From Nitrososphaerales archaeon (GTDB lineage: Archaea > Thermoproteota > Nitrososphaeria > Nitrososphaerales > Gagatemarchaeaceae), in NCBI GenBank assembly GCA_050015955.1, contig JBEKAG010000001.1:1-41838 (forward strand): a stretch of 41,838 nucleotides of DNA, written 5' to 3'. The position numbers and the translations under genes were made by a program. Below, piece by piece: positions 5,353 through 40,131 of this stretch (positions are counted from its first letter, which is position 1; each line of letters starts with the position of its first letter). The notes under the pieces are model-generated. The model worked only from the letters and a program-made list of their open reading frames with translations, made no database searches and was not told where the DNA came from.

Positions 5353-6270
5353 ATGGACAGGACTGACGTTACCCTATGTCTTTTCCTCATGACAAACTCG
5401 AGAACTCCATACCACGAACTCGCAGCAAAGCTCGGGCTTTCCATCAACGCGGTTCACAAGAGGATCAAGGCCATGATGGATTCGGGAATCATTCGTGCAT
5501 TCACAGCGCGGCCGAGCCTCGTCTCTCTCGGGGCGATTTCGGTATGGGTGTTCGGGAGGTCCGAGGCTTCTCGCCCCAGTGAGGTTCACTTGCGCCTCAA
5601 GACCAACGACAGCACCTACTGGGTAGCCAACTCTGGGGGAGGCTACGTCTACGTTGGCGGACACCTGAGAGACCTTTCCGAACTCGAGCCATATTTGGCC
5701 TTCGTGAAGAGAGAAGGAGGAATAGCCGACCCAACCGTGGGGATTCTTCCGCAGCTGACCAATCGCCCTCCCAAGGAGGAACTCCGTCAACTCGACTACC
5801 AGATACTTGCTTCCCTTCACAAGGACTCGCGCAAGCCTTTGAGCGACGTGGCGTCTGAGGTTCATGCGTCCGCGAAGACTGTGCATCGCCGGTTAGAGAG
5901 GATGATTGAGAAGGGTCTAGTCGACCTTTCTATCGACTGGTACCCAGATGCTTCAAACGACATTCTTGCCCTCTGTCACACCACAATCGACCGCCGCGCC
6001 GAGAGAATGAAGGTCTCGGCAGCGCTGAGACAGAGCTTTCCACAGAACGTCTTGATTGACGTTCTATTCAGCAATCTCCCCAACCAGCTCGTTCAATTTC
6101 TGTGGACCAATTCGATGAAGCAGATGGATGACCTCAGAGAAGGCATCGGCGAAGCGGAAGGCGTCACATCAGTCACTCTGAACGTCCTTCAAATTGGGTA
6201 CATGTTCGATACTTGGAGGGACAGACCCGTATCAAGGGATGGAGAACCAGCCACGACCCTGAGCCACTGA
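5353..6270 (+). CDS. tandem Lrp/AsnC-family transcriptional regulator (two HTH plus effector units)
   Basis: 305 aa with two HTH_AsnC-like segments: TPYHELAAKLGLSINAVHKRIKAMMDSGII and QLDYQILASLHKDSRKPLSDVASEVHASAKTVHRRLERMIEKGLV. Confidence 0.75.
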   Translation: MDRTDVTLCLFLMTNSRTPYHELAAKLGLSINAVHKRIKAMMDSGIIRAFTARPSLVSLGAISVWVFGRSEASRPSEVHLRLKTNDSTYWVANSGGGYVYVGGHLRDLSELEPYLAFVKREGGIADPTVGILPQLTNRPPKEELRQLDYQILASLHKDSRKPLSDVASEVHASAKTVHRRLERMIEKGLVDLSIDWYPDASNDILALCHTTIDRRAERMKVSAALRQSFPQNVLIDVLFSNLPNQLVQFLWTNSMKQMDDLREGIGEAEGVTSVTLNVLQIGYMFDTWRDRPVSRDGEPATTLSH

Positions 6271-7159: not shown

Positions 7160-8323
7160 ATGAATGTCGGCCGCGCCCTGGCACTGGCGAAGAAGGACTG
7201 GAAGAGAATCTTCAGGGAGCCTGCATTCCTCTTCATCATCATACTTTTCCCCGTCATGCTGACGGTGGCCTTTGGGACATCATTCGGCGCGGTAGGGGGA
7301 TCACAAACGCCCACATTCAAGATCGGGATAGTCGACTTCGGCCCAGGGGGCAATTCAACGTCGGCCGGCCAGTTCGTGGACGACCTCCGAGCTACGGGGG
7401 TAATGAACGTCCAGCACTTCACTGACAATACGACTGCACAATCGGTGCTTAGCCAAGGCCAGCTCCAAGGAGTCATTCTGCTGCCCTCCTCTTTCGATTC
7501 GACCGTTCAATCATACAAGTCTTACCCGAACGAGCCCGGTCGATGGGTGAACTCCACCGTTTCCCTGTACCTCGACAAGGGCTCTCTGCTTTCCCCACAA
7601 ATCATTCCCTCTGTTGTCGGGCAGGCATTGGAACAGGGGGTCCTCGGGATCAAGACGGTCGCGTCGGTGACGCCCTTCACTGTCTCAAGTCCGTCGCTGG
7701 TGAACGTTGAGGGCTCTTCGGTGTTTGCCATGTTTGCCCCAGGCCTATTCGCTTTCGCTTCAATCTACATGATTATGATGGTCGCCCAATCATACACCAC
7801 CGAAAGGGAAAATGGCCTGCTGAGCAGAATCCTGGTGACCCCAGCTACAAGCGCTGACGTAATCATGGGGTCGGTAATGTCTTACCTCGTTATAGGGCTG
7901 GTTCAGGCCTTGCTGGTCTTCCTGTGCGTCTTCGCCTTAGGGTATCACCCCGTCGCCAGTCCTGTGGGATTGCTTGCCGGCTTCCTCATCGTAACTGTTT
8001 TCGCCCTGTGCAACATTGGCTTCGGCCTAATCACGGCGGCCATCTCGAGATCTGCAAGTGCTGCCACGGGGATTTCTTTCCTCTTTCTGATGCCACAGCT
8101 ATTCCTTGGGACCTTTGTGGGGACGGCACTCTCAGCAACGGCCCAGACAGCGGGAAGGTTTGTTCCGGCTTACTACGTAACAGACGCCTTGACATCTCTC
8201 TTCACCAGAGGAGCGGCGGTCACGAGTCAGACTGTGCTTACAGACCTAGCGGTAGTGTCAGCAAGCAGCATAATCATCCTGCTAGCGGGGATTCAGGTCT
8301 TCAAACGATTCGGAAAAACCTGA
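7160..8323 (+). CDS. ABC-2 type transporter permease
   Basis: 387 aa, starting 3 nt after the ATPase stop. It has an N-terminal TM segment, a large extracytoplasmic loop, then about 5 C-terminal TM segments, which is the typical ABC-2 permease layout. Confidence 0.8.
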   Translation: MNVGRALALAKKDWKRIFREPAFLFIIILFPVMLTVAFGTSFGAVGGSQTPTFKIGIVDFGPGGNSTSAGQFVDDLRATGVMNVQHFTDNTTAQSVLSQGQLQGVILLPSSFDSTVQSYKSYPNEPGRWVNSTVSLYLDKGSLLSPQIIPSVVGQALEQGVLGIKTVASVTPFTVSSPSLVNVEGSSVFAMFAPGLFAFASIYMIMMVAQSYTTERENGLLSRILVTPATSADVIMGSVMSYLVIGLVQALLVFLCVFALGYHPVASPVGLLAGFLIVTVFALCNIGFGLITAAISRSASAATGISFLFLMPQLFLGTFVGTALSATAQTAGRFVPAYYVTDALTSLFTRGAAVTSQTVLTDLAVVSASSIIILLAGIQVFKRFGKT

Positions 8324-8654
8324 ACCCTCAGTTCTCCAGGAGAGCATCCTTCACTTCAGCCTCATACTACTGATTGCCTTCTGAGGAAAACCTCTTGGTT
8401 CGCAGCGTGCGCGTAGACAGCGATTCTTACTAAAAAATGGAGATTGGTGGGGATTGTGAAGTGTCGCGGGTCGGCATTAGGGACCACAGTCGTAGTCCCA
8501 GTTGCTTGAGGAAACTCAAAGTCGGATCAAAACAGTAACTTGCGGTAGATTGAGAACGAATCTTCATCCACAGCTCGGATTCAACGCGTTAGACTGGCCA
8601 GGTCCGTCGAACAGACCGATCGACGGTAACCAATCCTCATCCCGCTCTCAGTTT

Positions 8655-25945: not shown

Positions 25946-26896
25946 TTGAAACCGAAGAGTCTCCTTACCCTCGCGGAGTTCGACCCAGATGAGATGGGTT
26001 ACATCCTGTCCCTTTCCCTGAAGCTGAAGGGAGCCAGGGGGAGGTCGAAGGAACGCCTTCTCCGGGGAAAGACGATAGCGCTGCTCTTCGAGAAGCCTAG
26101 CACCCGAACTAGGGTCAGCTTCCAAGTCGCGACCAGCGAACTCGGGGGAAGCTCAATCAGCCTCGGTTCCAACGAGATCCAACTCGGAAGGGGCGAGACA
26201 ATCGAAGACACGGCCCGAGTTCTGTCAAGATATGTCCATGCGATCATGGCCCGGGTCAACGAGCATTCGGAGGTCGAGCGCCTTGCCGCCTCTTCCACCG
26301 TGCCCGTAATCAACGGGCTGAGTGACCTCTACCACCCGGTGCAGATTCTTGCCGACCTCCTCACATTGCGAGAGCGGAAGGGTTCACTCAAGGGGCTGAA
26401 GGTTGCGTGGGTTGGGGACGGGAACAACGTCTGCAACTCCTGGTTGATTGGCGCAGCGACCACGGGGATCGGGTTTTCGGCCGCCACTCCGCCTGGCTAC
26501 CCTCCCAACAAGAAGGCGGTGAGTGTAGCGAAGTCGATTGCGAGAGGCACGGGTGCGTCCCTCACACTTGTTGAAGACCCGAAGGAGGCGGTGGAAGGGG
26601 CGGACTGCGTAATCACCGACACGTTCGTATCCATGGGGTTCGACAAGGAGAGAGAGGAGAGAGTCAGAGCCTTCCTGCCGAGGTATTGTGTCGACAGGCA
26701 CCTGATGGCCCTGGCAAAGAGAGGCGCTATCTTCCAGCATTGCCTTCCGGCCCACAGAGGCGAAGAGGTGACCGACGAGGTCATCGACGGACCGAACTCG
26801 GCGGTCTGGGATGAAGCGGAAAACCGTCTGCACACGACAAAGGCCCTGCTTTGCTACCTTATGCTCGGGCGAACGGAGCTTCGAAGGCTGCCGTAG
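25946..26896 (+). CDS. argF: ornithine carbamoyltransferase
   Basis: STRTRVSF, HPVQILADL, DTFVSMG and HCLPAHRGEEV are the OTCase motifs. TTG start. Confidence 0.9.
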   Translation: MKPKSLLTLAEFDPDEMGYILSLSLKLKGARGRSKERLLRGKTIALLFEKPSTRTRVSFQVATSELGGSSISLGSNEIQLGRGETIEDTARVLSRYVHAIMARVNEHSEVERLAASSTVPVINGLSDLYHPVQILADLLTLRERKGSLKGLKVAWVGDGNNVCNSWLIGAATTGIGFSAATPPGYPPNKKAVSVAKSIARGTGASLTLVEDPKEAVEGADCVITDTFVSMGFDKEREERVRAFLPRYCVDRHLMALAKRGAIFQHCLPAHRGEEVTDEVIDGPNSAVWDEAENRLHTTKALLCYLMLGRTELRRLP

Positions 26897-30344: not shown

Positions 30345-30941
30345 GTGAGCAAGGCGATGACAGACACCCTGAAGAAGGTCTCCAGAGAGTTCGAAAGCGA
30401 ACTCATGGTTGAGCTCGAGAAGGGGAAGGTGCAGGCTCTTTCATCCGTAGAGTCGTCCAGAAGGGAGGCAAACGTGGCGGTGACAAGAATCCTGGACACG
30501 AGCGTCAAGCAGGCCGAATCGCTGAGGGACCAGATCATCGGGGCGGGGGAACTTGAAGCGCGGAACGCCCTGTTGAAGACCCTGGAGATGGCCGTGGTCG
30601 AAGTCTTCGACTCGGCAGTCAAGGAACTTCGAAATATGTCCGGCGTACGCTACGACAGGTCGCTGACGCGGCTTGTCAAGGAGGGGCTGGAAGCGATCGG
30701 TCCAAGTGCCAGGATTTACTGCAGTTCCAAGGACAGGGAGGCTATCTCAGCCGTCTTGCACCGGCTCGGGGGCAGTCAGTCAAAGCCGGTCCTCGAGAGG
30801 AAGAGCATAGATACCGTCGGAGGCGTCGTCGTAGCTTCCATGGACGGGTCAGTGAGATTCGACAACACATTCGAGGCTAGGCTTGAGAGAATGCGATCGG
30901 CTCTTAGGATGCAGGTCTCGGCAATACTTGCGCCCGGGTAA
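30345..30941 (+). CDS. atpE: A-type ATP synthase subunit E
   Basis: 198 aa. N-terminal long helix and C-terminal globular part ending ..GGVVVASMDGSVRFDNTFEARLERM. GTG start; ATG 30357 is an alternative. Confidence 0.8.
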   Translation: MSKAMTDTLKKVSREFESELMVELEKGKVQALSSVESSRREANVAVTRILDTSVKQAESLRDQIIGAGELEARNALLKTLEMAVVEVFDSAVKELRNMSGVRYDRSLTRLVKEGLEAIGPSARIYCSSKDREAISAVLHRLGGSQSKPVLERKSIDTVGGVVVASMDGSVRFDNTFEARLERMRSALRMQVSAILAPG

Positions 30942-31054
30942 CTTCGACAGACATCGGCTCCCTGGAAATAGGTTGACTCGATCAGAACTGGTAACGCGTC
31001 TCAGGTCAATGGATGTTCGTCGTCCTGTGACTACTGGCGCGCGTTCCGCCCAAG

Positions 31055-31064
31055 TATTATTAAG
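31055..31064 (+). promoter_or_regulatory. TATA-like box TATTATTAAG, 37 nt before the atpA TTG start (possible internal promoter)
   Basis: AT-rich box in the 150-nt atpE-atpA gap. It is preceded by GGCGCGCG (31036-31043). Confidence 0.35.
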
Positions 31065-31091
31065 TCGAGTCTGGAAGAGCAAAAGAATTCA

Positions 31092-32879
31092 TTGACGGTC
31101 AAGGGAAAGATCGAGTGGATTTCGGGGCCGGCCGTCAAAGCTTCAGGAATGTCTACCGCCGAGATGCACGAAGTCATTCAGGTAGGCGAGGAGAAGCTGA
31201 TTGGCGAAGTAATCAAGCTGACGGGTGACATCGCCTTCGTCCAAGTCTACGAGTCCACTAGCGGCCTGCGACCAGGTGAGCCCGTCCTCGGTACGGGTCA
31301 GCCTCTGTCGGCCACTCTCGGGCCGGGCATGATTGGGACGATCTATGATGGTCTCCAGAGACCACTCGACAAGATCGCAAAGAATGCAGGCGCATTCATA
31401 CCGAGAGGAGTCTCGGCTAACTCGATACCCCTCAACAAACGATGGGCGTTCGTCCCCTCAGTCAAGAACGGAGACGAGATCGAGGGCGGGAGTGTCTTGG
31501 GGTGCGTCCAAGAGACGCCGCTGATCGAGCACAGAGTCCTAGCTCCGCCGACCACGCCCAAGGCAAAGGTCAAGGACGTCTTGAAGGCAGGTGACTGCAA
31601 GGTCAACGAAACTGTCGTCGTGGCTGAGGACAAATCAGGCAAGAAACATGAGCTGATGCTGTATCACCGGTGGCCAGTTAGGACTCCAAGGCCTGTCCGC
31701 GGGAGGCTCGACCCGGAGATTCCGCTCTTGACAGGACAGAGGGTTCTCGACTCTTTCTTCCCGATGGCGAAGGGAGGCACAGGAGCGATACCAGGAGCGT
31801 TCGGGACCGGAAAGACTGTGACTCTTCATTCAGTCGCGAAATGGGCGGACGCTAATGTTGTCTTTCACATCGGCTGCGGGGAGCGGGGGAATGAGATGAC
31901 CGAGGTACTGGTCGAGTTCCCAAAGCTGATCGACCCCAAGAGTGGCAGACCGTTGATGGAAAGGACCATCCTCATCGCCAATGTCAGCAACATGCCGGTC
32001 GCTGCCAGGGAAGCGAGCATCTACACAGGGGTCACGATGGCCGAGTACTACAGAGACATGGGGTACGACACTGTCTTGGTGGCCGACTCGACCAGCAGAT
32101 GGGCGGAAGCGCTCCGCGAGATCAGTGGAAGGTTGGAGGAGATGCCGGCGGAAGAAGGCTACCCGCCCTACCTTGCATCGAGGCTCGCCGAATTCTATCA
32201 AAGGGCGGGAAGGGCCGACCTACTGGGCATGCCGTCAAGGACCGGCTCAATCACCCTCGTCGGCGCCGTTTCCCCTGCCGGAGGCGACTTCACCGAACCG
32301 GTCACCTCTCAGACAATCAGGTTTGTCAAGACATTCTGGTCCCTCGATGCAAGGCTCGCGTATTCAAGACACTATCCGTCCATCAACTGGATGAACTCCT
32401 ATTCGGGGTACACCGAATCGGTAAGTAAGTGGTGGAAGGATAGGGTCGACAAGGAGTGGCTCTCGGTAAGAGCCGATGCCTATGCCATCCTCCAGCGTGA
32501 AGATGCGCTCAAGGAGATCGTGCGGCTCCTCGGGCCCGAGGCCCTGCCCGACGAAGAGAAGCTGATCTTAGACGTCGCAAGGATGATCCAGATTGGGTTC
32601 CTCCAGCAGAATGCGTACGATGACGTCGACGCCTACTGCAGCCCGCAGAAGCAATTCAGGATGATGAAGATGTTCGTGCAGTACCACCAAGAGGCGCTAA
32701 AGGCGCTGAGGAGCGGCGTGCCGCTGCCCAAGATAAGAGGGATGCAAGTAATCGCCCCGATGCTGAGGGCGAAGTTCGAAACAAAGAGCGAAGACCTCGG
32801 CGCGCTCGAGTCACTCGCGAGACGGATGTTCGACGAGTTCGCCAGCCTGTCGGGTCTACCGGAAGCGAAGGCGGAGTGA
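31092..32879 (+). CDS. atpA: A-type ATP synthase catalytic subunit A
   Basis: 595 aa. Walker [10 protein letters not shown], and the non-homologous insert typical of A subunits. 4-nt overlap with atpB. Confidence 0.95.
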
Positions 32880-34288
32880 GCAAGTCGTCCTCAGGCGTAG
32901 AGTACAGCAAAGTGGCCGAGATCAAGGGGCCCCTGCTTGTAATTGACGGCGTCAGCCGAGCCGCCTTCGACGAGCTGGTCGAGATAGAAGACAGCGGAGG
33001 CAAGAGAAGGCTCGCGAGGGTCTTGGAGACCGGTTTCGGCAAAGCCGTAGTCCAGGTCTTCGAGGGGACCTCCGGCCTGTCCATCAGCGGGACAAAGTCG
33101 CGCTTCTTGGGTCATACAATGCAGCTCCCGGTCTCTGACCAGCTCCTCGGAAGGGTCTTCGACGGACTGGGCAAGCCTCTTGACGGTCTTCCCGAGCCGG
33201 TCCCCAAGACTTTCCTCGATGTCAACGGCGCGCCGATTAACCCTGAGAGGAGGGCGTACCCAACCGACCTAATCCGGACCGGCGTCTCGGTCATCGACGG
33301 AATGCTGACCCTTGTCAGGGGCCAGAAGCTTCCAATCTTCTCGGGAGCCGGCATGCCTCACAACATGCTGGCCGCGCAGGTCGCAAGACAGGCAACAGTA
33401 ACGGGGGAAAGCGAAGAGTTCGCAGTCGTCTTCGCAGCCGTGGGCGTTTCGAGCAGCGACGCCAGGTTCTTCCAGCGCACGCTCACGGAGTCGGGCGCGA
33501 TTAGAAGGAGCATCCTGTACCTGAACCTCGCGGACGACCCGGCCATCGAGAGGATCATTACTCCCCGTGTCGCTCTCACGGCAGCGGAGTACCTCGCATT
33601 CGAACTGAACATGCACGTCCTGGTAATAATCACTGACATCACGAACTACTGCGAGGCGCTCAGAGAGATCTCAGCAGCGAGGGAGGAGGTGCCAGGCAGG
33701 AAAGGCTTCCCGGGTTACCTCTACACGGACCTCGCGATGATCTACGAACGGGCCGGCAGAATTAAGGGCATGAAGGGAAGCATCACCCAGATGCCCATCC
33801 TTTCGATGCCCAACGACGACGTGACTCACCCGATCCCTGACCTCACGGGCTACATAACCGAGGGCCAGATATTCCTCGGAAGGGAGCTCTTCCGGAAGGG
33901 TCTCTATCCGCCAGTGTACGTGCTTTCAAGCCTCAGCAGGCTGATGGGCCCGGCGCTGGGCCAAGTCATCAAGCGGGGCAAAGCCCCTGCCGATCAATAC
34001 CAAGTTGGCAACCAGCTGTACAACGCATACGCAAGGTCGGTCGAGTTGCGCGCCCTGGGGGAGATCGTCGGCAAGTCAGGTCTGACAGATTCAGACCTGA
34101 AGTACCTCGCCTTTGGCGATGCGTTCGAGCAAAAGTACCTCAACCAGGGCTCCGACGAGAACCGGTCCTTCGGGGACACGCTGAAGATCGCGTGGGAAGT
34201 CCTTTCGATACTTCCGAAGAGTGAGCTCACCAATGTCAAGGAAGAGTTCATACAGAAGTACTACGTCACGAACAGGTCCACTGGATAG
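32876..34288 (+). CDS. atpB: A-type ATP synthase subunit B
   Basis: 470 aa. Conserved blocks [15 protein letters not shown] and [15 protein letters not shown]. Confidence 0.95.
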
Positions 34289-34290
34289 AG

Positions 34291-34932
34291 ATGTCCGTAG
34301 CCTTCGGCTCCAACGTCCTTCCAACGAAGATCGAACTGATCAGCACGAGCCGGAGGCTTCAGACTGCAGTCAGGGTGAAGAAAGTTCTCGACGACAAGCG
34401 AGAGATCCTCCTGAAGCGTCTAGATGAGACGATCCAGCAGGCGACAGTAGCACGCGACGAGATTTCGCAGCCCCTCTCGGACGCCTATCTCGCGCTGTAC
34501 GACGCATACCTCAAGCTGGGCCCGTTCAGGATCGAGGGGATCGCAGCGAACACTCCACCGATGGTTGAGGCCGACATCGTGGTCCACAGAATGGTCGGCG
34601 TGGATGTGCCCTCGGTCGAGTTCTCCGAGAAGGTGGTGGGTATGACCTATGGCTTCGCGGACACTAACGTGGCCGTCGATAAGGCGTCCAGACAGATGAG
34701 GAAGGTCCTCCCCTCCATCTTCAGGGCCGCAGAGTTCGAGAATACGATATTTAGGCTCGCGAAGGAGCTTGAGAAGACACAGCGCCTCCTAAACGCGCTC
34801 GAGTACATGATTATTCCGCGGTACGAGAACTCCATCCGCTACATCCAGCAGATTCTCGAAGAGAGGGAGAGGGAGGAGTTTACCAGGCTTAAACATGTAA
34901 AGAAGGTCCTTGAGAGGAAGGCCGCGGAATGA
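34291..34932 (+). CDS. atpD: A-type ATP synthase subunit D
   Basis: 213 aa. N-terminal PTKIELISTSRRLQTAVRVKKVLDDKREILL and C-terminal ..TQRLLNALEYMIIPRYENSIRYIQQILEEREREEF. Confidence 0.9.
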   Translation: MSVAFGSNVLPTKIELISTSRRLQTAVRVKKVLDDKREILLKRLDETIQQATVARDEISQPLSDAYLALYDAYLKLGPFRIEGIAANTPPMVEADIVVHRMVGVDVPSVEFSEKVVGMTYGFADTNVAVDKASRQMRKVLPSIFRAAEFENTIFRLAKELEKTQRLLNALEYMIIPRYENSIRYIQQILEEREREEFTRLKHVKKVLERKAAE

Positions 34933-35359: not shown

Positions 35360-37669
35360 CTATTCGCACTTGCTGTAGCCGCAGCTAGTGCACTTGTAGC
35401 AGCCGTTCTCGAATATCAGTGAGCTCTCATTGCAGTCAGGACACGTCCCTCCCTGCGCGACCTGTCTTGGGGCGGCAGGCTGCAACGGGACCTCCGACTC
35501 CTTCACAACGTGGTTGAGGGTCAGAAGCTCGAGCGCCTTGGCGATCGCGTCCGGAATCGAGAGCAGCTGCGTCCCTTCGTCCCACGAAACGTACTTGCCC
35601 TTGATTCCCTTCAGGGTAGATATGGCGCTCTCCGCGTCTCCTCCGTGCTGAAGGTAGAGGCTGATCAGTCTCCCCAAGGCCTCGGCGTCGGCCTTCTCGT
35701 CCCCGCCTGACTTGCCAAGGGTCACGAAGACCTCTTTCAGCTCGCCGTTGACTAGGTTGGCCGTAAGATACAGGCCTCCTTGCGGGAGGTTCAGCTTGAG
35801 GGTCCTGCCTTCCATCATCCTCGGCCTATCGAAGGGGGCTTTCGGCTGCTCGGCCTTCTTGACCATCTTGGCCGTCTCCAGAATCCCCTCCCTGCTTCCC
35901 TCCCTGTAGACTGTGATGCCCTTGCATCCCATCTTCCAGGCGAGGAGGTAAATCTCCTCGACTTTTTCTGGGGTCGTTTCCTGAGACAGGTTGACGGTGC
36001 TGGAGATGGCCGTGTCGATATGTTTCTGGATGGTCGCCTGCATCTTCACCCTCATCTCAGGCTTGATTTGGTGCGAGGTTACGAAGTAGCTGGGCAACTG
36101 TCCCTCGTTCTTCGCGCCGGTCCGAACCATGTACTCCCTGACGAGCGGATGGAACACCTTGAACTCGCTTTCGCTGAGAGACTTAGTCCTTCTCGTGTAG
36201 TGGAGGGCGAAGACCGGCTCTATCCCACTGGAGCAACCCGCGAGTATCGAGCCCGAACCCACCGGCGGGATTGTCGTTATTGCGGCGTTCCTGATGCCTT
36301 GGGCCCGGATCTTTTCTTTGACCTTCTCGTCCAGCCTCGAGGTGAATGGCTGGTCTAGGTGGCGTTCGGCGTTAAAAGCCGGGAAGCTCCCCTTCTCCTT
36401 GGCGAGGTCGGTGGAGTAATCGTAAATCAGATTCTTGATCCTCTCGAACAGGTGATCCACGAACCCAATAGTCGAGTCCTCATCATACTTCAGGCCGAGC
36501 TTGATCAGCATGTCGCCCAATCCTGTGATGCCGACTCCGATCCTTCTGCTGCGAAGCGATGCGTCCTTCTGTTGGTAGAGCGGGTGTCGTTCTGTGTTGT
36601 AGTCGAGGACGTTGTCAAGGAACCTCACGGCGAATTGGGTCGCCTTTGTGAGCGATTCCCAGTCAATACTAGCCCTTTCCGTAAAAGGCTCTTGGACGAA
36701 GGCGCTGAGGTTGACAGAGCCCAGGCAACAGCACCCGTAGTTCTCTAGTGTCTGTTCGCTGCAGGGGTTGACTCCCTGCACCTCCATGCCACCGTACTCA
36801 GTCGTCGACTCCCTCTTTATGGTGTCCCAAAAGAGAACCCCAGGCTCAGCCGACTCCCACGCGCCCCTGATGAGCGACTTCCAGACGTCCCTAGCCATGA
36901 CGGTCCTGTTGATTTCCGCTTTCTCGTTCTTGAAGTGAAGCAGGAAGTCTCCGTCGCTTTCTACGGCTCTCATAAAGTCGTCAGTAATCTTAACAGAGAT
37001 GTTGGCGTAGTTTACCTTCTTTAGGTCCTTCTTGACGTTGATGAAATCCATCACGTCAGGGTGGTCAACTCTCATCGTGATTATGAGCGCGCCCCTCCTT
37101 CCTGCTTGACCAATCGTCCCTGTCGTAGTCGAGAGGAGCTCCATGAACGAGACCGAACCAGAACTGTAGATTGCCGAGTTGTTGACCGGGGCTCCCCTGG
37201 GCCTCAGCACCGAGATGTCTGTGCCGACTCCTCCACCAAAACTGTAAGTCCTCGCCGCCTCCTTGCACCAATCGAATATCGCTTCAATCGAGTCCTCCCT
37301 TATCCTGAAAAAGTAGCAGTTCAATAGAGTCGACCTCCTCGTCTGTCCAGCCCCGAAGAGAATTCTTCCTCCCGGGACGAACTTATAGTCCTGAAGCAAC
37401 CAGTGGAACTTCGCGGTCCATTCCTGCCTCTTTTCCTCGTCCCTCTCTGGCGAGGCGAGTTCCTTCGCCACTCTGCGCCACATGTCATCCGGGACCTTCT
37501 CTACCTGCCTTCCCTGCTCGTCTCTCAATGCGTACTTTTCATAGAAGACCCTGGCGCGCAGTTCATCTCCTCCGAACGCGGCGAGGGTCTCTGAGGGGAT
37601 CTTCAGTTCTCTCTTGTCATGCTCTCCGACATTCGGAGAGTCACGTGGCTCTTCTACTATTGACGTCAT
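35360..37669 (-). CDS. nrdJ: adenosylcobalamin-dependent (class II) ribonucleotide reductase
   Basis: Class II RNR blocks (FYEKYALRDEQG, TLLNCYF, PCSEQTLENYGCCCLGSVNL, GIGITGLGD, SSGIEPVF) and a C-terminal Cys ribbon CPDCNESSLIFENGCYKCTSCGYSKCE. Start moved to M69 (ATG 37669) of the track ORF, which removes the overlap with the upstream gene. Confidence 0.9.
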   Translation of the reverse strand: MTSIVEEPRDSPNVGEHDKRELKIPSETLAAFGGDELRARVFYEKYALRDEQGRQVEKVPDDMWRRVAKELASPERDEEKRQEWTAKFHWLLQDYKFVPGGRILFGAGQTRRSTLLNCYFFRIREDSIEAIFDWCKEAARTYSFGGGVGTDISVLRPRGAPVNNSAIYSSGSVSFMELLSTTTGTIGQAGRRGALIITMRVDHPDVMDFINVKKDLKKVNYANISVKITDDFMRAVESDGDFLLHFKNEKAEINRTVMARDVWKSLIRGAWESAEPGVLFWDTIKRESTTEYGGMEVQGVNPCSEQTLENYGCCCLGSVNLSAFVQEPFTERASIDWESLTKATQFAVRFLDNVLDYNTERHPLYQQKDASLRSRRIGVGITGLGDMLIKLGLKYDEDSTIGFVDHLFERIKNLIYDYSTDLAKEKGSFPAFNAERHLDQPFTSRLDEKVKEKIRAQGIRNAAITTIPPVGSGSILAGCSSGIEPVFALHYTRRTKSLSESEFKVFHPLVREYMVRTGAKNEGQLPSYFVTSHQIKPEMRVKMQATIQKHIDTAISSTVNLSQETTPEKVEEIYLLAWKMGCKGITVYREGSREGILETAKMVKKAEQPKAPFDRPRMMEGRTLKLNLPQGGLYLTANLVNGELKEVFVTLGKSGGDEKADAEALGRLISLYLQHGGDAESAISTLKGIKGKYVSWDEGTQLLSIPDAIAKALELLTLNHVVKESEVPLQPAAPRQVAQGGTCPDCNESSLIFENGCYKCTSCGYSKCE

Positions 37670-37694
37670 AACCTTAGCTCCAACCCTATTTCCT

Positions 37695-37710
37695 GCGATA
37701 TATATCTCGC
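37695..37710 (-). promoter_or_regulatory. (TA)4-containing near-palindrome GCGAGATATATATCGC, 30-36 nt before the nrdJ ATG (TATA box and/or operator)
   Basis: Read directly on the minus strand. The spacing matches the other TATA-like boxes in the window. Confidence 0.4.
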
Positions 37711-37821
37711 TCTTGCTGACTCGCAGTTGACAACCACGAGAGGTCCGGTCCGAGGTCTCGACGACATGAAGCGATTTGCGGTGGATTTTTCTTGACAGGA
37801 TGTCTACTTCGTTCACTCGGG

Positions 37822-39927
37822 CTAGACGGCCGTCGAATACTGAATCGTGGCCACTGATTTGCATCTTCTGCATCGGGCCGCGTTCTGCGGCAACTTGGCA
37901 CCGCAGTTCCTGCAGACCAATATGGTCCTGTCGACCTTGAAGTACGGTAGCTTGGGTGTTGCATTCAGAATCGGGTTGTAGACGCCTCTGACCTCTTCCG
38001 CGTTTCCGTCGAGTGTTACGGAGAGCCCGCCGTGGAGGCCAGCTGCCAGCTTGGCCATGTAGTTCATCTTCTCAGGGCTTTCTAGGTCCGCCAGGAGCAA
38101 CCTAGGGGCCTGGGTGTAAGCACCTTTCTGCAGTGGCTGGAGATTCGCTTTCCCGTATTTCTCGGAGTCGAGTGTTGCCAGTCTGAGAGCACCGTCGAGT
38201 TCAAGGATAGCAACGCCCAGCCGGTCTATTCTGGTCGACTTGTCGTTGGCGACCTGACTTGCCGTTTCCACTATCTTCTCGGCGAGCTCGGACCGCGAGC
38301 CCATGGTCGGGTCTCTGATCAGGCTAGCTAGGGTCTCCTCGAGACCGACTAAGTTCATGATTAGCGGCATCGTGTCCGAAGTCACAGCGTCCGACCCAGA
38401 CGCGAGAGACGGCAAAAGGCCCCGTTTCATGGTTCTCTCAATGAGTCTTCTCCTTGTCGAGAGCGCATCAGATGCGACGCCGATTAGCAGAGCTAGTTTC
38501 GCGCGGAAGTATGTTTCGTCCTGGTTGGAATCGTATGCTAACCTGGGGAGGTTTAGGCTCAACCCATGGAGTACACTGATGTTGTCCGCCTGCGACTCCT
38601 GTGGAAGGACATTTGCATCTAAACCTAGGAAGCTCCTCCTCTGATCCGATGAGAAGAATGCTATCCTGCCCCCGTTGAATATGATAGAAGCTGCGTCCTT
38701 GAGCGTCTTCGTCTCGTCGACCCTGTTCGGCTTGGCCAGCAGCAGCCTGATGTCGGGCCGGGGCGTCTCCTCCACGAAACTCCTGTATGCCCCGAGCACG
38801 GCGTCGAGAGTTCTGTCGAGGACATCCCTGCCCAAGTCGTCGTGCCTGTACGGGTTCAGCTCAAGGCTGATTGCAGGACCCTGGGCTCCCGCGATGGGGG
38901 AGCTTGCAGCTTCGAAGAACCTCAGGAAGAGTGACTCCATTTCTCTCTTCCCACGCGACTTGCAGAAAGGTCCTAGGTATTGCAGGAAGTTCCTGAAAGT
39001 GACTTCGTCGGATACCTCTTTGCAGAGCATCGATGTCATATTGAGCACGATGTTGAGGGCCCTCTCCGCATTCTCTGGGCTCGGAATCATCGGCATGTTG
39101 AGAATCCTTCCTCGCGGGTTCATCCCTCCGTTCCTTACTGACAACAAGTCGACGAAGACTGTGTCGGGGGTCAGCCCCCAAGTCCCGGCATTGGCGATGT
39201 GAATGTCGCCCGAAAGGTGAGCATCGGCGACGTCTCTGGGAAGCTGCTCCAACAGGAGGTACTCCGAGAAGACCTGCTTTCCGGTCTGATGCACAAGCGA
39301 CTCCACGTTCCCCCCGTCGTCGCCGGCCTTCCCCAAAAGCTGGGTCACGTCATAGATTGGCATGCCAAGCCTCGTCAGCTTGTGCCTGTACTCCTCCATA
39401 CTGTGCTCGACCAGGAGTGCGTTGACTATCTCTCGGATCAGAGGGGCGGTCAGGTACTGCGTCTGGAACTTGTAGAGTCTCGATTCAGTCTCGCTGGTTA
39501 TCTTCTGCGCCAGCTCGACCGGCATCCCCGCCTCCTTCACGAGGGATTGCAGAATCTTGTTCGCGTTGAACTCCTCCATCGTTTGGTGGGAGGTTCTCAC
39601 GTACAACTTCCCGCTTTCGACGAGCGACTGTTCCTCGATTTGACGTGTGAGGTTGAGGACGAGTCTGCCTAGGTTTGTAACAGTGTACTTCCTCTCCTGT
39701 CTGTTAAGCTGAATGAGGAGCTGCTTGACGAGCTTCCTGAGATGGTATGCAAACTTACCTGATTCCTTCTTCGACTTAAAACCGGCCAGAGTCTTCAGGG
39801 CGCTGTAGGTCAGAGGCCCCTTGATGTTCAGAATCCTCAGTATCTCCAGTCTTTGGGGAGATGCAATTACGCTGTAGATCGTCTTAACCCTTCTGGGAGC
39901 TGCCTGCAAATCTGGTCGGAAGGTCAT
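37822..39927 (-). CDS. ArsR-type wHTH + ATP-cone + class III RNR (NrdD)-like domain lacking the radical residues (predicted pseudoenzyme or regulator)
   Basis: 701 aa. The wHTH is SPQRLEILRILNIKGPLTYSALKTLAG..FAYHLRKLVKQLLI. The ATP-cone-like part is KLYVRTSHQTMEEFNANKI...IREIVNALLVEH. NrdD blocks are LPRDVADAHLSGDIHI and LSLNLPRLA. The ribbon is CRNCG-x10-CRRC. DQRRSFLG replaces the GCRSFLG thiyl-Cys block, and the C-terminus KSVATIQYSTAV has no Gly. Confidence 0.85.
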   Translation of the reverse strand: MTFRPDLQAAPRRVKTIYSVIASPQRLEILRILNIKGPLTYSALKTLAGFKSKKESGKFAYHLRKLVKQLLIQLNRQERKYTVTNLGRLVLNLTRQIEEQSLVESGKLYVRTSHQTMEEFNANKILQSLVKEAGMPVELAQKITSETESRLYKFQTQYLTAPLIREIVNALLVEHSMEEYRHKLTRLGMPIYDVTQLLGKAGDDGGNVESLVHQTGKQVFSEYLLLEQLPRDVADAHLSGDIHIANAGTWGLTPDTVFVDLLSVRNGGMNPRGRILNMPMIPSPENAERALNIVLNMTSMLCKEVSDEVTFRNFLQYLGPFCKSRGKREMESLFLRFFEAASSPIAGAQGPAISLELNPYRHDDLGRDVLDRTLDAVLGAYRSFVEETPRPDIRLLLAKPNRVDETKTLKDAASIIFNGGRIAFFSSDQRRSFLGLDANVLPQESQADNISVLHGLSLNLPRLAYDSNQDETYFRAKLALLIGVASDALSTRRRLIERTMKRGLLPSLASGSDAVTSDTMPLIMNLVGLEETLASLIRDPTMGSRSELAEKIVETASQVANDKSTRIDRLGVAILELDGALRLATLDSEKYGKANLQPLQKGAYTQAPRLLLADLESPEKMNYMAKLAAGLHGGLSVTLDGNAEEVRGVYNPILNATPKLPYFKVDRTILVCRNCGAKLPQNAARCRRCKSVATIQYSTAV

Positions 39928-39950
39928 TGTCGATTGTATATATGTATGCG

Positions 39951-39965
39951 TTGACCATTAGTCAA
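39951..39965. promoter_or_regulatory. perfect palindrome TTGAC-CATTA-GTCAA, 24-38 nt upstream of the wHTH-NrdD-like gene (candidate auto-operator)
   Basis: Read directly. It occupies the position where a TATA/BRE would be expected and is followed by an ATATATA stretch (39936-39945). Confidence 0.35.
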
Positions 39966-40020
39966 AACAAATTCGCTTACGCGTCGGCGGCGCCGGAATA
40001 GAACATTCCAGACTTAGCAG

Positions 40021-40131
40021 TGGGGTCGCCCGGATTTGAACCGGGGATCTTCAGCGCCCAAGGCTGAAAGCCTAGACCAGACTAGCCCCTTGATTGCGAA
40101 AGACAAGACTCAAGGTCTAGCCGACGACCCC
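40021..40131 (-). tRNA. tRNA-Pro (anticodon UGG) with a 35-nt non-canonical intron in the D-loop
   Basis: Folded by hand. Acceptor GGGGUCG/CGACCCC is perfect. T arm is CCCGG-UUCAAAU-CCGGG. Anticodon arm is UCAGC-CUUGGGC-GCUGA (UGG, G37). The D arm works only after removal of about 40082-40118. The intron forms helix CCUUGA/UCAAGG flanked by two AG(A/U) 3-nt bulges separated by a 4-bp helix (BHB-like). No encoded CCA. Confidence 0.8.

Follow-up and report, generated by a model that had tools for sequence, protein, structure and literature searches.

A winged-helix, ATP-cone and inactive NrdD fusion protein encoded beside nrdJ in Nitrososphaerota, a candidate regulator of ribonucleotide reductase genes

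The 41,838-nt stretch analysed here (positions 1 to 41,838 of contig JBEKAG010000001.1, assembly GCA_050015955.1, from a Nitrososphaerales archaeon; hereafter the window) carries on its reverse strand a gene whose product joins an ArsR/SmtB-type winged helix-turn-helix (wHTH) and an ATP-cone to the barrel of a class III ribonucleotide reductase (RNR; NrdD) that has lost its radical chemistry. This protein probably serves as a nucleotide-responsive transcription factor that acts on RNR genes and is itself derived from an RNR. Its presumed target, nrdJ (35360..37669, −), is the next gene downstream in the same orientation; it encodes a class II (B12-dependent) RNR and was identified with TIGR02504 (NrdJ_Z; 550 bits against a cut-off of 400) and the Pfam domains Ribonuc_red_lgC, lgN and TSCPD, its start being taken from homologue alignment. 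By Pfam, the window NrdJ has the TSCPD domain and a C-terminal Zn ribbon and is without an ATP-cone. The longest open reading frame (ORF) of nrdJ, 35360-37873 (−; 837 amino acids (aa)), runs 52 nt into the regulator gene at its 3′ end; the overlap is an artefact of open frame before the real start at 37669. The initial annotation correctly placed a 152-nt spacer between the two genes (37670-37821, with the nrdJ ATG at 37669).

The regulator coding sequence occupies 37822..39909 (−), from a TTG at 39909 to a TAG stop at 37824-37822, and specifies 695 aa. The ORF given initially, 37822-39927 (−, 701 aa), is present in the window, and its frame and coordinates hold, but its start is corrected here: in homologues and in the output of gene callers the start is a TTG or ATG aligned with residue 7 of the 701-aa ORF. 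TTG 39909 is probably the true start, and ATG 39927, which would add six residues, is probably not used, because that ATG lies only 9 nt past a TATA-like box and the homologues align six codons later. Residue numbers in this text (C672, R430, T256, R111 and so on) follow the 701-aa ORF.

The wHTH spans residues 17-91 (39655..39879, −). Pfam assigns these residues of the window protein to the archaeal DUF7347 wHTH (E = 1.6e-9, above the curated cut-off), whereas HTH_20, at residues 22-72 (E = 2e-5), scores 24.8 against a cut-off of 27 and so falls just below it; the ArsR-type winged helix proposed initially is supported, with DUF7347 as the significant profile. Among 63 aligned family members, DUF7347 matches 63/63, HTH_20 51/63 and HTH_5 16/63. 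Residues 1-100, modelled alone with AlphaFold2 (AF2), reached a predicted local distance difference test (pLDDT) score of 94.8, and the best Foldseek matches of this model are ArsR/SmtB repressors with template modelling (TM) scores of 0.64-0.74: 3f6o, NolR (its DNA complex too), CzrA, SmtB and CadC. The corresponding E-values are only ~1e-3 because the domain is small. Within the wHTH, every Nitrososphaerota homologue that we aligned with E. coli and phage T6 NrdD carries AGFKSKKESGKFAYHLRKL unchanged. The domain is also the most conserved part of the protein: the ratio of non-synonymous to synonymous substitution rates (dN/dS; pairwise Nei-Gojobori, window gene against nine relatives) is 0.000-0.005.

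The ATP-cone follows at residues 109-180 (39388..39603, −) and leads into a conserved linker, LTAPLIRE...EEYRHKLTRLG.P.YDV. The cone had been proposed from the start, and PF03477 matches here at 30.1 bits against a gathering score of 25.8 (E = 7e-7), with matches in 62/63 family members. V110, R111, F120, I125, R165 and R186 are invariant across cone and linker in the family, and the dN/dS of this part is 0.002-0.03. The cone resembles that of a genuine archaeal NrdD encoded at locus L084 of our comparison set; this similarity and its strong conservation suggest that it may still work.

The largest module is the barrel of a dead class III RNR, at approximately residues 219-665 (37933..39273, −), delimited by Pfam, alignments and Foldseek. 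Pfam finds NRDD (PF13597) in the window protein with E = 3.5e-25, and the NCBIfam equivalog model of NrdD, TIGR02487, gives 76.1 bits against a cut-off of 326.35, a score that marks the protein as related to NrdD and far from a normal one. A phmmer search of protein sequences in the PDB with the single protein returned only marginal NrdD matches (E 0.01-1), and a family profile was therefore needed; it matches solved NrdDs with E = 2e-38. The full-length AF2 model, built on a 63-sequence alignment, has a pLDDT of 87.2 and a predicted TM score of 0.79. Its 36 best Foldseek matches in the PDB are all class III RNRs (E 1e-20 to 1e-13, 12-16% identity, TM 0.46-0.69 normalised by target); other glycyl-radical enzymes and class I/II RNRs rank beyond them. 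Profile and structure prediction hence bear out the NrdD body that had been recognized from a few motifs.

The E. coli motifs given in the initial annotation are correct. We aligned the window protein and nine diverse relatives with the real E. coli and phage T6 NrdD sequences, and a wider alignment took in 63 family members, two phage/bacterial NrdDs and the two archaeal NrdD-type genes of L084 and L088. In these alignments LPRDVVQAHERGDIHY stands opposite LPRDVADAHLSGDIHI, and ISLNLPRIA of E. coli opposite LSLNLPRLA of the window protein. The residues of radical chemistry, as defined in PMC9669993, PMC4493059 and PMC11226230, are gone, as the initial annotation had claimed. The finger loop reads MGCR or MCCR in 1,375 class III RNRs, and the beta-A Cys is 92.6% conserved (PMC9669993). 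Here, PMGCRSFLG of E. coli has become SDQRRSFLG, with the thiyl Cys replaced by R430 (38638-38640), a position at which family members differ (R, K, T, I, H, Y, L and others). FNCMLIDL of E. coli has become PDTVFVDL, with the beta-A Cys (C79 in T4, C175 in E. coli, C125 in T. maritima) replaced by T256 (39160-39162); this position is T, E, S, D or V in the 63 relatives, and the Cys is kept in 4/4 comparison NrdD-type sequences, including the L088 gene. The HxHD motif, which binds the substrate triphosphate in NrdD (PMC4493059, PMC11226230), reads HIAN in the window protein, and the family keeps its first His only.

The C-terminal end tells the same story. The barrel is followed by an NrdD-type Zn ribbon, C672/C675/C686/C689 (37861-37914), and a 12-residue tail, KSVATIQYSTAV; the alignments place ribbon and tail at 37825..37914 (−). 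The CxxC-x10-CxxC ribbon is as first described, and its four Cys are invariant in 63/63 members. The tail contains no Gly and ends in QYSTAV, which the family profile alignment places opposite EYMRIV of T. maritima, directly before GY; the protein would thus stop one residue short of the radical Gly. No Gly occurs past the ribbon in 65/75 Nitrososphaerota homologues. The window protein has six Cys, of which only the ribbon four are conserved among the 63 members; Cys stays below 30% in every other alignment column, and in 14/75 Nitrososphaerota homologues the ribbon Cys are the only Cys. The barrel motifs DAH..G.IH, NLPR and D587 are kept. Altogether, radical chemistry and the substrate-triphosphate motif are lost throughout the family and not in the window sequence alone: the alignments show the catalytic Cys and Gly, whose conservation would have spoken against the initial annotation, not to be conserved.

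The gene is under strong purifying selection. Its dN/dS is ~0.03-0.05 for the whole protein and 0.03-0.056 for the dead barrel, so that it is not a decaying pseudogene. The three-module architecture is found in the window protein and the 63 aligned relatives (the cone with the one missing Pfam match given above), and in a protein search the three domains recurred together in >100 clusters, at 65-96% identity and exclusively from Nitrososphaerales/Thaumarchaeota metagenome-assembled genomes (MAGs); the named matches are all MAGs. Database names for these proteins are inconsistent, either "ArsR family transcriptional regulator" or "anaerobic ribonucleoside-triphosphate reductase". Among 600 candidates in GTDB species genomes, at least 525 matching stretches were confirmed, and an exhaustive search of representatives gave 1,104 clusters (50% identity) at E<=1e-3, 208 of them below 1e-30. 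A tblastn search of 50,697 phage records gave no match to the window protein. Distant members, of 700-800 aa, come from Bathyarchaeia, Thorarchaeota and others and keep wHTH, cone and barrel. Their longer C-terminal tail is a recognizable relic of the glycyl-radical domain (SRSLAKYLP, SRISGMLKP, ARRLGYLEP; compare SRITGYY in a genuine archaeal NrdD), in which the residue at the Gly site varies; these members also have no thiyl Cys. Judging from these tails, it is the Nitrososphaerota clade that has shortened the glycyl-radical tail. In two MAG loci the regulator frame is broken (L053, 6001-7959; L055, 6001-7899), and in L055 the C-terminal ribbon and a QYSTAE tail are readable downstream in another frame; either assembly frameshift or local pseudogenisation may be responsible.

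Linkage to RNR genes was followed in 80 related Nitrososphaerota loci, 71 of which have enough flanking DNA, the others ending too near the gene. In 70/71 informative loci the next gene downstream, in the same orientation, encodes a class II RNR; in the remaining one (L042) the RNR gene is adjacent and convergent. The linkage first noticed in the window, where the two genes are co-directional, thus recurs as an adjacent RNR gene in 71/71. It extends over two lineages of NrdJ, one with 62-92% and the other with 32-37% identity to the window enzyme, and the MPG glycosylase and MFS (major facilitator superfamily) transporter genes upstream are kept in close relatives only. Outside the Nitrososphaerota, a Bathyarchaeia-like member (L084) lies directly upstream of a genuine NrdD gene, with thiyl Cys and Gly present, and then a thioredoxin-like gene. 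A second distant member (L088) is upstream of an NrdD-like gene that is itself without thiyl Cys and Gly.

That L088 gene (8276-10159) encodes an NRDD-like protein of 627 aa with no wHTH, in which the beta-A Cys and a VRTS cone signature are kept; PAGLRA stands at the thiyl site and SRSIAFY at the radical-Gly site. By its sequence, this gene seems to form, with the family member before it, a tandem of two dead NrdD paralogues. Near the window nrdJ-regulator pair are a pyrB-like aspartate/ornithine carbamoyltransferase gene (OTCace; 25946-26896, +) and genes for A-type ATPase subunits E, A, B and D (30345-34932, +); in both L084 and L088, which are Bathyarchaeia-like, OTCace, PyrI and A-ATPase E/F genes lie beside the regulator-NrdD pair, and these similar neighbours mean that the gene neighbourhood may be ancient. 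Some nrdJ genes also vary in structure. In nine loci (L012, L013, L024, L026, L031, L034, L052, L060, L065) the NrdJ tblastn match is split or late, beginning ~1.4-1.8 kb past the regulator at query residues ~117-141 or 303, as would be expected if inteins or other insertions interrupted nrdJ. In a clade of four (L056, L058, L059, L063), ~1 kb separates the regulator from the NrdJ match and the NrdJ ORF opens ~650 nt earlier, which points to an N-terminal extension, possibly one or more ATP-cones, without counterpart in the window NrdJ; this clade also has a perfect GTCAA-N6-TTGAC palindrome in the regulator's own promoter.

Both promoters carry candidate operators built on the same half-site. 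Upstream of the regulator gene, an exact palindrome TTGAC-N5-GTCAA (39951..39965, −), a candidate autoregulatory operator, ends 8 nt upstream of a TATA-like box, ATATATAC (39936..39943, −), which itself lies 27 nt upstream of TTG 39909 and aligns with the homologue boxes TTAAATAC. In the regulator-nrdJ spacer, a distal array TAGAC-N5-GTCAA-N6-TCCAC (37781..37806, −), just past the regulator stop, is a degenerate copy of TTGAC-N5-GTCAA-N6-TTGAC of the relatives. It is followed by a conserved element, TCGCTTCATGTCG (37762..37774, −), for which the footprint gives the family consensus CGyyTCAT, then TTGAC in some clades. Next come proximal boxes, GGTTGTCAAC-N5-GTCAGC (37715..37735, −), a candidate nrdJ operator that ends 8 nt upstream of the nrdJ TATA box, GATATATATC (37697..37706, −); this box is conserved as GA.aTATATa and lies 28 nt upstream of ATG 37669. 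The arrangement suggests leaderless or near-leaderless mRNAs for both genes.

Phylogenetic footprinting of 43 distinct spacers yielded islands at GTCAA, TTCAC six bases on, CGyyTCAT, GGTyrAAC, TCAGCC and the TATA box. The GTCAA of the distal array is kept in 43/43 with variable flanks, the proximal boxes are conserved as GGTyrAAC...TCAGCC, and CGyyTCAT occurs in distant clades too. The regulator upstream regions and regulator-nrdJ spacers make up 5% of the 900 kb of related loci searched. Within these 900 kb we counted 12 copies of GTCAA-N6-TTGAC and 15 of TTGAC-N5-GTCAA; 11 of the former lie before the regulator or in the spacer, and all of the latter (15/15) lie in the spacer. Other spacings are essentially absent. 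The density of GTCAA/TTGAC is 8.4-9.8 per kb in those regions and 2.2 per kb overall, and the half-site is present in 69/75 regulator upstream regions, compared with ~20/75 random 150-nt windows (maximum 32 in 1,000 resamplings). At least three or four clades carry exact palindromes in sequence contexts that have otherwise diverged. The operator-like palindromes are 15-16 bp long, and their half-sites lie 10-11 bp apart, a spacing that fits a wHTH dimer on successive major grooves. From these patterns we infer that GTCAA/TTGAC is a half-site common to the regulator and nrdJ promoters and that the palindromes are putative operators.

In the distant locus L084, a search for the Nitrososphaerota operator gave only short shared words, CATGAGTC and CTACACGTA with its reverse complement. 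The regions before the regulator (5731-5858) and before nrdD (8159-8436) have in common CATGAGTC (once CATGAGTCAAC) and CTACACGTA/TACGTGTAG; these words may represent a lineage-specific operator, on what is anecdotal evidence. Between 37500 and 40300 of the window, Rfam reports no known RNA element besides a tRNA, which makes a known riboswitch in the spacer unlikely. This tRNA, upstream of the regulator (40020-40131, −), is ambiguous. Default ARAGORN calls a 69-nt tRNA-Pro(TGG) at 40020-40088, the Rfam match covers model positions 9-63 only, and ARAGORN with introns allowed returns a different, odd fold. The acceptor 3′ strand CGACCCC pairs perfectly with GGGGTCG ~43 nt further upstream (~40131), which suggests that a non-canonical intron interrupts the tRNA close to the acceptor/D-arm junction. 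In several related loci (L012, L014-L016, L021, L035, L052 and L054) the regulator is likewise preceded by this tRNA 3′ end.

Taken together, the above features are best explained by an RNR-derived, nucleotide-responsive transcription factor for RNR genes, a reading to which we give a probability of roughly 60%. The computationally testable predictions of the initial annotation, which had seen in the protein a nucleotide-sensing regulator of nrdJ, all came out as proposed, while DNA binding, operator identity, ligand and the sign of regulation are inferred. In the mechanism that we propose, the ArsR-type winged helix would bind the palindromic GTCAA/TTGAC half-sites abutting the TATA/BRE (B recognition element) of its own and the nrdJ promoters. 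The NrdD-derived barrel, its radical chemistry gone, would serve as a dimerisation and allosteric scaffold. The ATP-cone would read out adenine (deoxy)nucleotides, most probably as the dATP/ATP ratio, and nucleotide on the cone would shift the oligomeric state or conformation and so alter DNA binding. The outcome would be feedback on deoxyribonucleoside triphosphate (dNTP) synthesis at the level of transcription. In archaea, a regulator bound upstream of BRE/TATA, where the candidate operators lie, could either repress or activate; following the NrdR parallel, we favour dATP-promoted repression. An external sensor of dNTP sufficiency would make physiological sense, since the window NrdJ has no ATP-cone of its own.

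The regulator probably originated by tandem duplication of an archaeal nrdD, one copy turning regulator beside its parent gene and keeping its position next to whichever RNR the lineage uses, the class II enzyme in Nitrososphaerota. More broadly, the family could be the missing archaeal counterpart of NrdR, an ancient regulator of TACK and Asgard archaea that arose from a duplicated class III RNR, lost radical chemistry and gained a wHTH; its allosteric parts, the ATP-cone and possibly relics of effector or substrate pockets, would report dNTP/NTP state to RNR promoters, and aerobic Nitrososphaerota would have retargeted it from nrdD to nrdJ. To this wider scenario, in both its parts, we give even odds.

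Several observations weigh against the regulator reading. Among the distant, non-Nitrososphaeria members, 5/8 have no RNR-type neighbour, one of these five being beside pyrI; of the other three, two are the L084 and L088 members described above and the third, L092, is counted neither way. The RNR adjacency itself may in part go back to the tandem duplication that gave rise to the family. The Gln of the T. maritima NrdD s-site is apparently not conserved, in an alignment that is weak at ~15% identity; at that level the mapping of Q161, Q210 and Q218 onto the family is unconvincing, Q161 seemingly falling opposite a variable position. In the functional cone of P. copri NrdD, a basic pair in the N-terminal hairpin and C-terminal Arg hold the phosphates (K7, R8, R87, R91; PMC11226230). 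The hairpin of our family reads VRTS, compared with KR/RK in active RNRs: R111 is invariant and Thr takes the second position, so that one canonical phosphate-binding basic residue is gone. VRTS is the signature of the whole family, and any residue-by-residue match to the P. copri cone is tentative. As for the operators, a pattern search of the window by itself, allowing <=2 mismatches, found 14 instances where ~15-16 are expected by chance, and only the exact copy at 39951-39965 stands out; with this search at chance level, the operator case rests on comparative data. The compared loci are related, so the operator counts are not independent events, and the distal copy in the window spacer is degenerate, with 1-2 mismatches per palindrome.

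Some of these observations would sit well with a DNA-binding regulator of broader regulon (replication, cell cycle, nucleotide metabolism) whose adjacency to nrdJ is a relic of duplication. The distant members without an RNR-type neighbour, some of them near pyrI/pyrB, RFC or SSB, fit such a protein, and so does the likeness of the pyrB-like OTCace and A-type ATPase genes of the window to distant loci, which suggests an old, inert gene order. However, the adjacency persists over 43-96% protein identity and across two NrdJ lineages when the MPG and MFS neighbours are not kept, and the same half-site motif stands at the regulator and nrdJ promoters; we therefore consider a broader regulon unlikely, while keeping it in serious view. 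A pseudoenzyme that acts by protein-protein contacts on RNR activity or the nucleotide pool, with the wHTH used for tethering or dimerisation, is a distinctly doubtful alternative. Such contacts would explain the strong constraint on the barrel (dN/dS 0.03-0.056) and the invariant Zn ribbon, which normally buttresses the Gly-radical domain, and in anaerobic relatives a real paralogous NrdD encoded next door could heterodimerise with the protein. Yet the neighbour in Nitrososphaerota is a class II enzyme, for which pairing with NrdD is not known, and neither the match of the most conserved part, the wHTH, to DNA-bound ArsR-type repressors nor the conserved palindromes in both promoters favour it.

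That the protein is still an enzyme, its NrdD barrel turned to some other, non-glycyl-radical nucleotide chemistry, seems to us very improbable. The retention of DAH..G.IH, NLPR and D587 could be cited in its support, as could T. maritima NrdD, which shows that finger-loop alignments can mislead (PMC4493059); but no Cys beyond the ribbon is conserved, those four are the only Cys in 14/75 homologues, HxHD is lost, the Gly loop is truncated and the NCBIfam NrdD score is 76 bits against a cut-off of 326. Finally, the apparent 3′ frameshifts in the MAG loci L053 and L055 might recall a decaying nrdD pseudogene or an artefact of annotation or assembly. This last explanation is effectively refuted: the pseudogene reading was rejected on dN/dS (~0.03-0.05), the frame is intact in the window and ~75 loci, and hundreds of species-level homologues share the same length and ends.

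If the RNR-regulator reading is true, it would fill an archaeal gap in the transcriptional control of dNTP synthesis, which is well described in bacteria through NrdR, for a large group of archaea; among them are the Nitrososphaerota, which are abundant in soils and oceans. An essential enzyme, together with its allosteric domain, would have been recycled as the sensor of its own pathway's regulator. There is a practical side too. Hundreds of genomes label the protein "anaerobic ribonucleoside-triphosphate reductase", a misleading name that credits these organisms with an anaerobic route to dNTPs. Since the domains are soluble and operators are predicted, the hypothesis lends itself to direct tests in vitro. 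The initial annotation knew of no described member of such a family, and in the literature that we searched (papers on RNR phylogeny, RNRdb and NrdR included), with subscription journals thinly covered, we likewise found no description of a protein with wHTH, ATP-cone and inactive NrdD; an earlier passing mention may exist.

Among known systems, the closest relatives by descent are the NrdDs themselves (E. coli, T4, T. maritima, P. copri, S. thermophilus), with which the regulator shares a homologous ATP-cone, barrel and Zn ribbon, including the NLPR motif, the first His of HxHD and the four ribbon Cys. In contrast to them, it is without the M(G/C)CR Cys, the beta-A Cys, the His/Asp/Arg of the triphosphate motif and the RVxGY tail, has an extra N-terminal wHTH and scores far below the NrdD equivalog cut-offs. 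It is a NrdD homologue that fails every catalytic membership test applied and, on its sequence, not an RNR enzyme. Its N-terminal 100 residues follow the same order of secondary-structure elements as ArsR/SmtB proteins (CzrA, SmtB, CadC, NolR), alpha1-alpha2-alpha3-alphaR-beta-beta-alpha5, but where those have a metal site as sensor, this family has a 600-residue RNR-derived module. The reuse of a pathway's catalytic fold as the effector sensor of a wHTH regulator has a parallel in NrtR, the Nudix-related regulator of NAD metabolism (PMC2330246), and regulators of this kind are often mis-annotated as the enzyme; fold and pathway differ, and here the donor is RNR itself, which brings its own allosteric ATP-cone.

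The nearest functional parallel is NrdR, the bacterial RNR-specific repressor, which combines a Zn ribbon with an ATP-cone, acts under nucleotide-dependent control (PMC9110341, PMC12176259) and is rare in archaea (PMC9110341). In both cases an ATP-cone is joined to a DNA-binding module, the gene lies with or near RNR genes, and paired or palindromic boxes stand at the RNR and own promoters; the same logic is expected, with binding predicted in the present case. The parts differ. NrdR has an N-terminal Zn ribbon where the archaeal protein has an ArsR-type wHTH, the ribbon of the latter being C-terminal and of NrdD type, and NrdR measures ~150-170 aa compared with 695 aa that include a complete dead NrdD barrel. 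No NrdR model is among the NCBIfam matches of the window protein at E<=1, and the GTCAA/TTGAC boxes, defined in this analysis, are not claimed to be related to NrdR boxes. The archaeal protein is accordingly not a member of the NrdR family; it would be a functional analogue of NrdR built from different parts.

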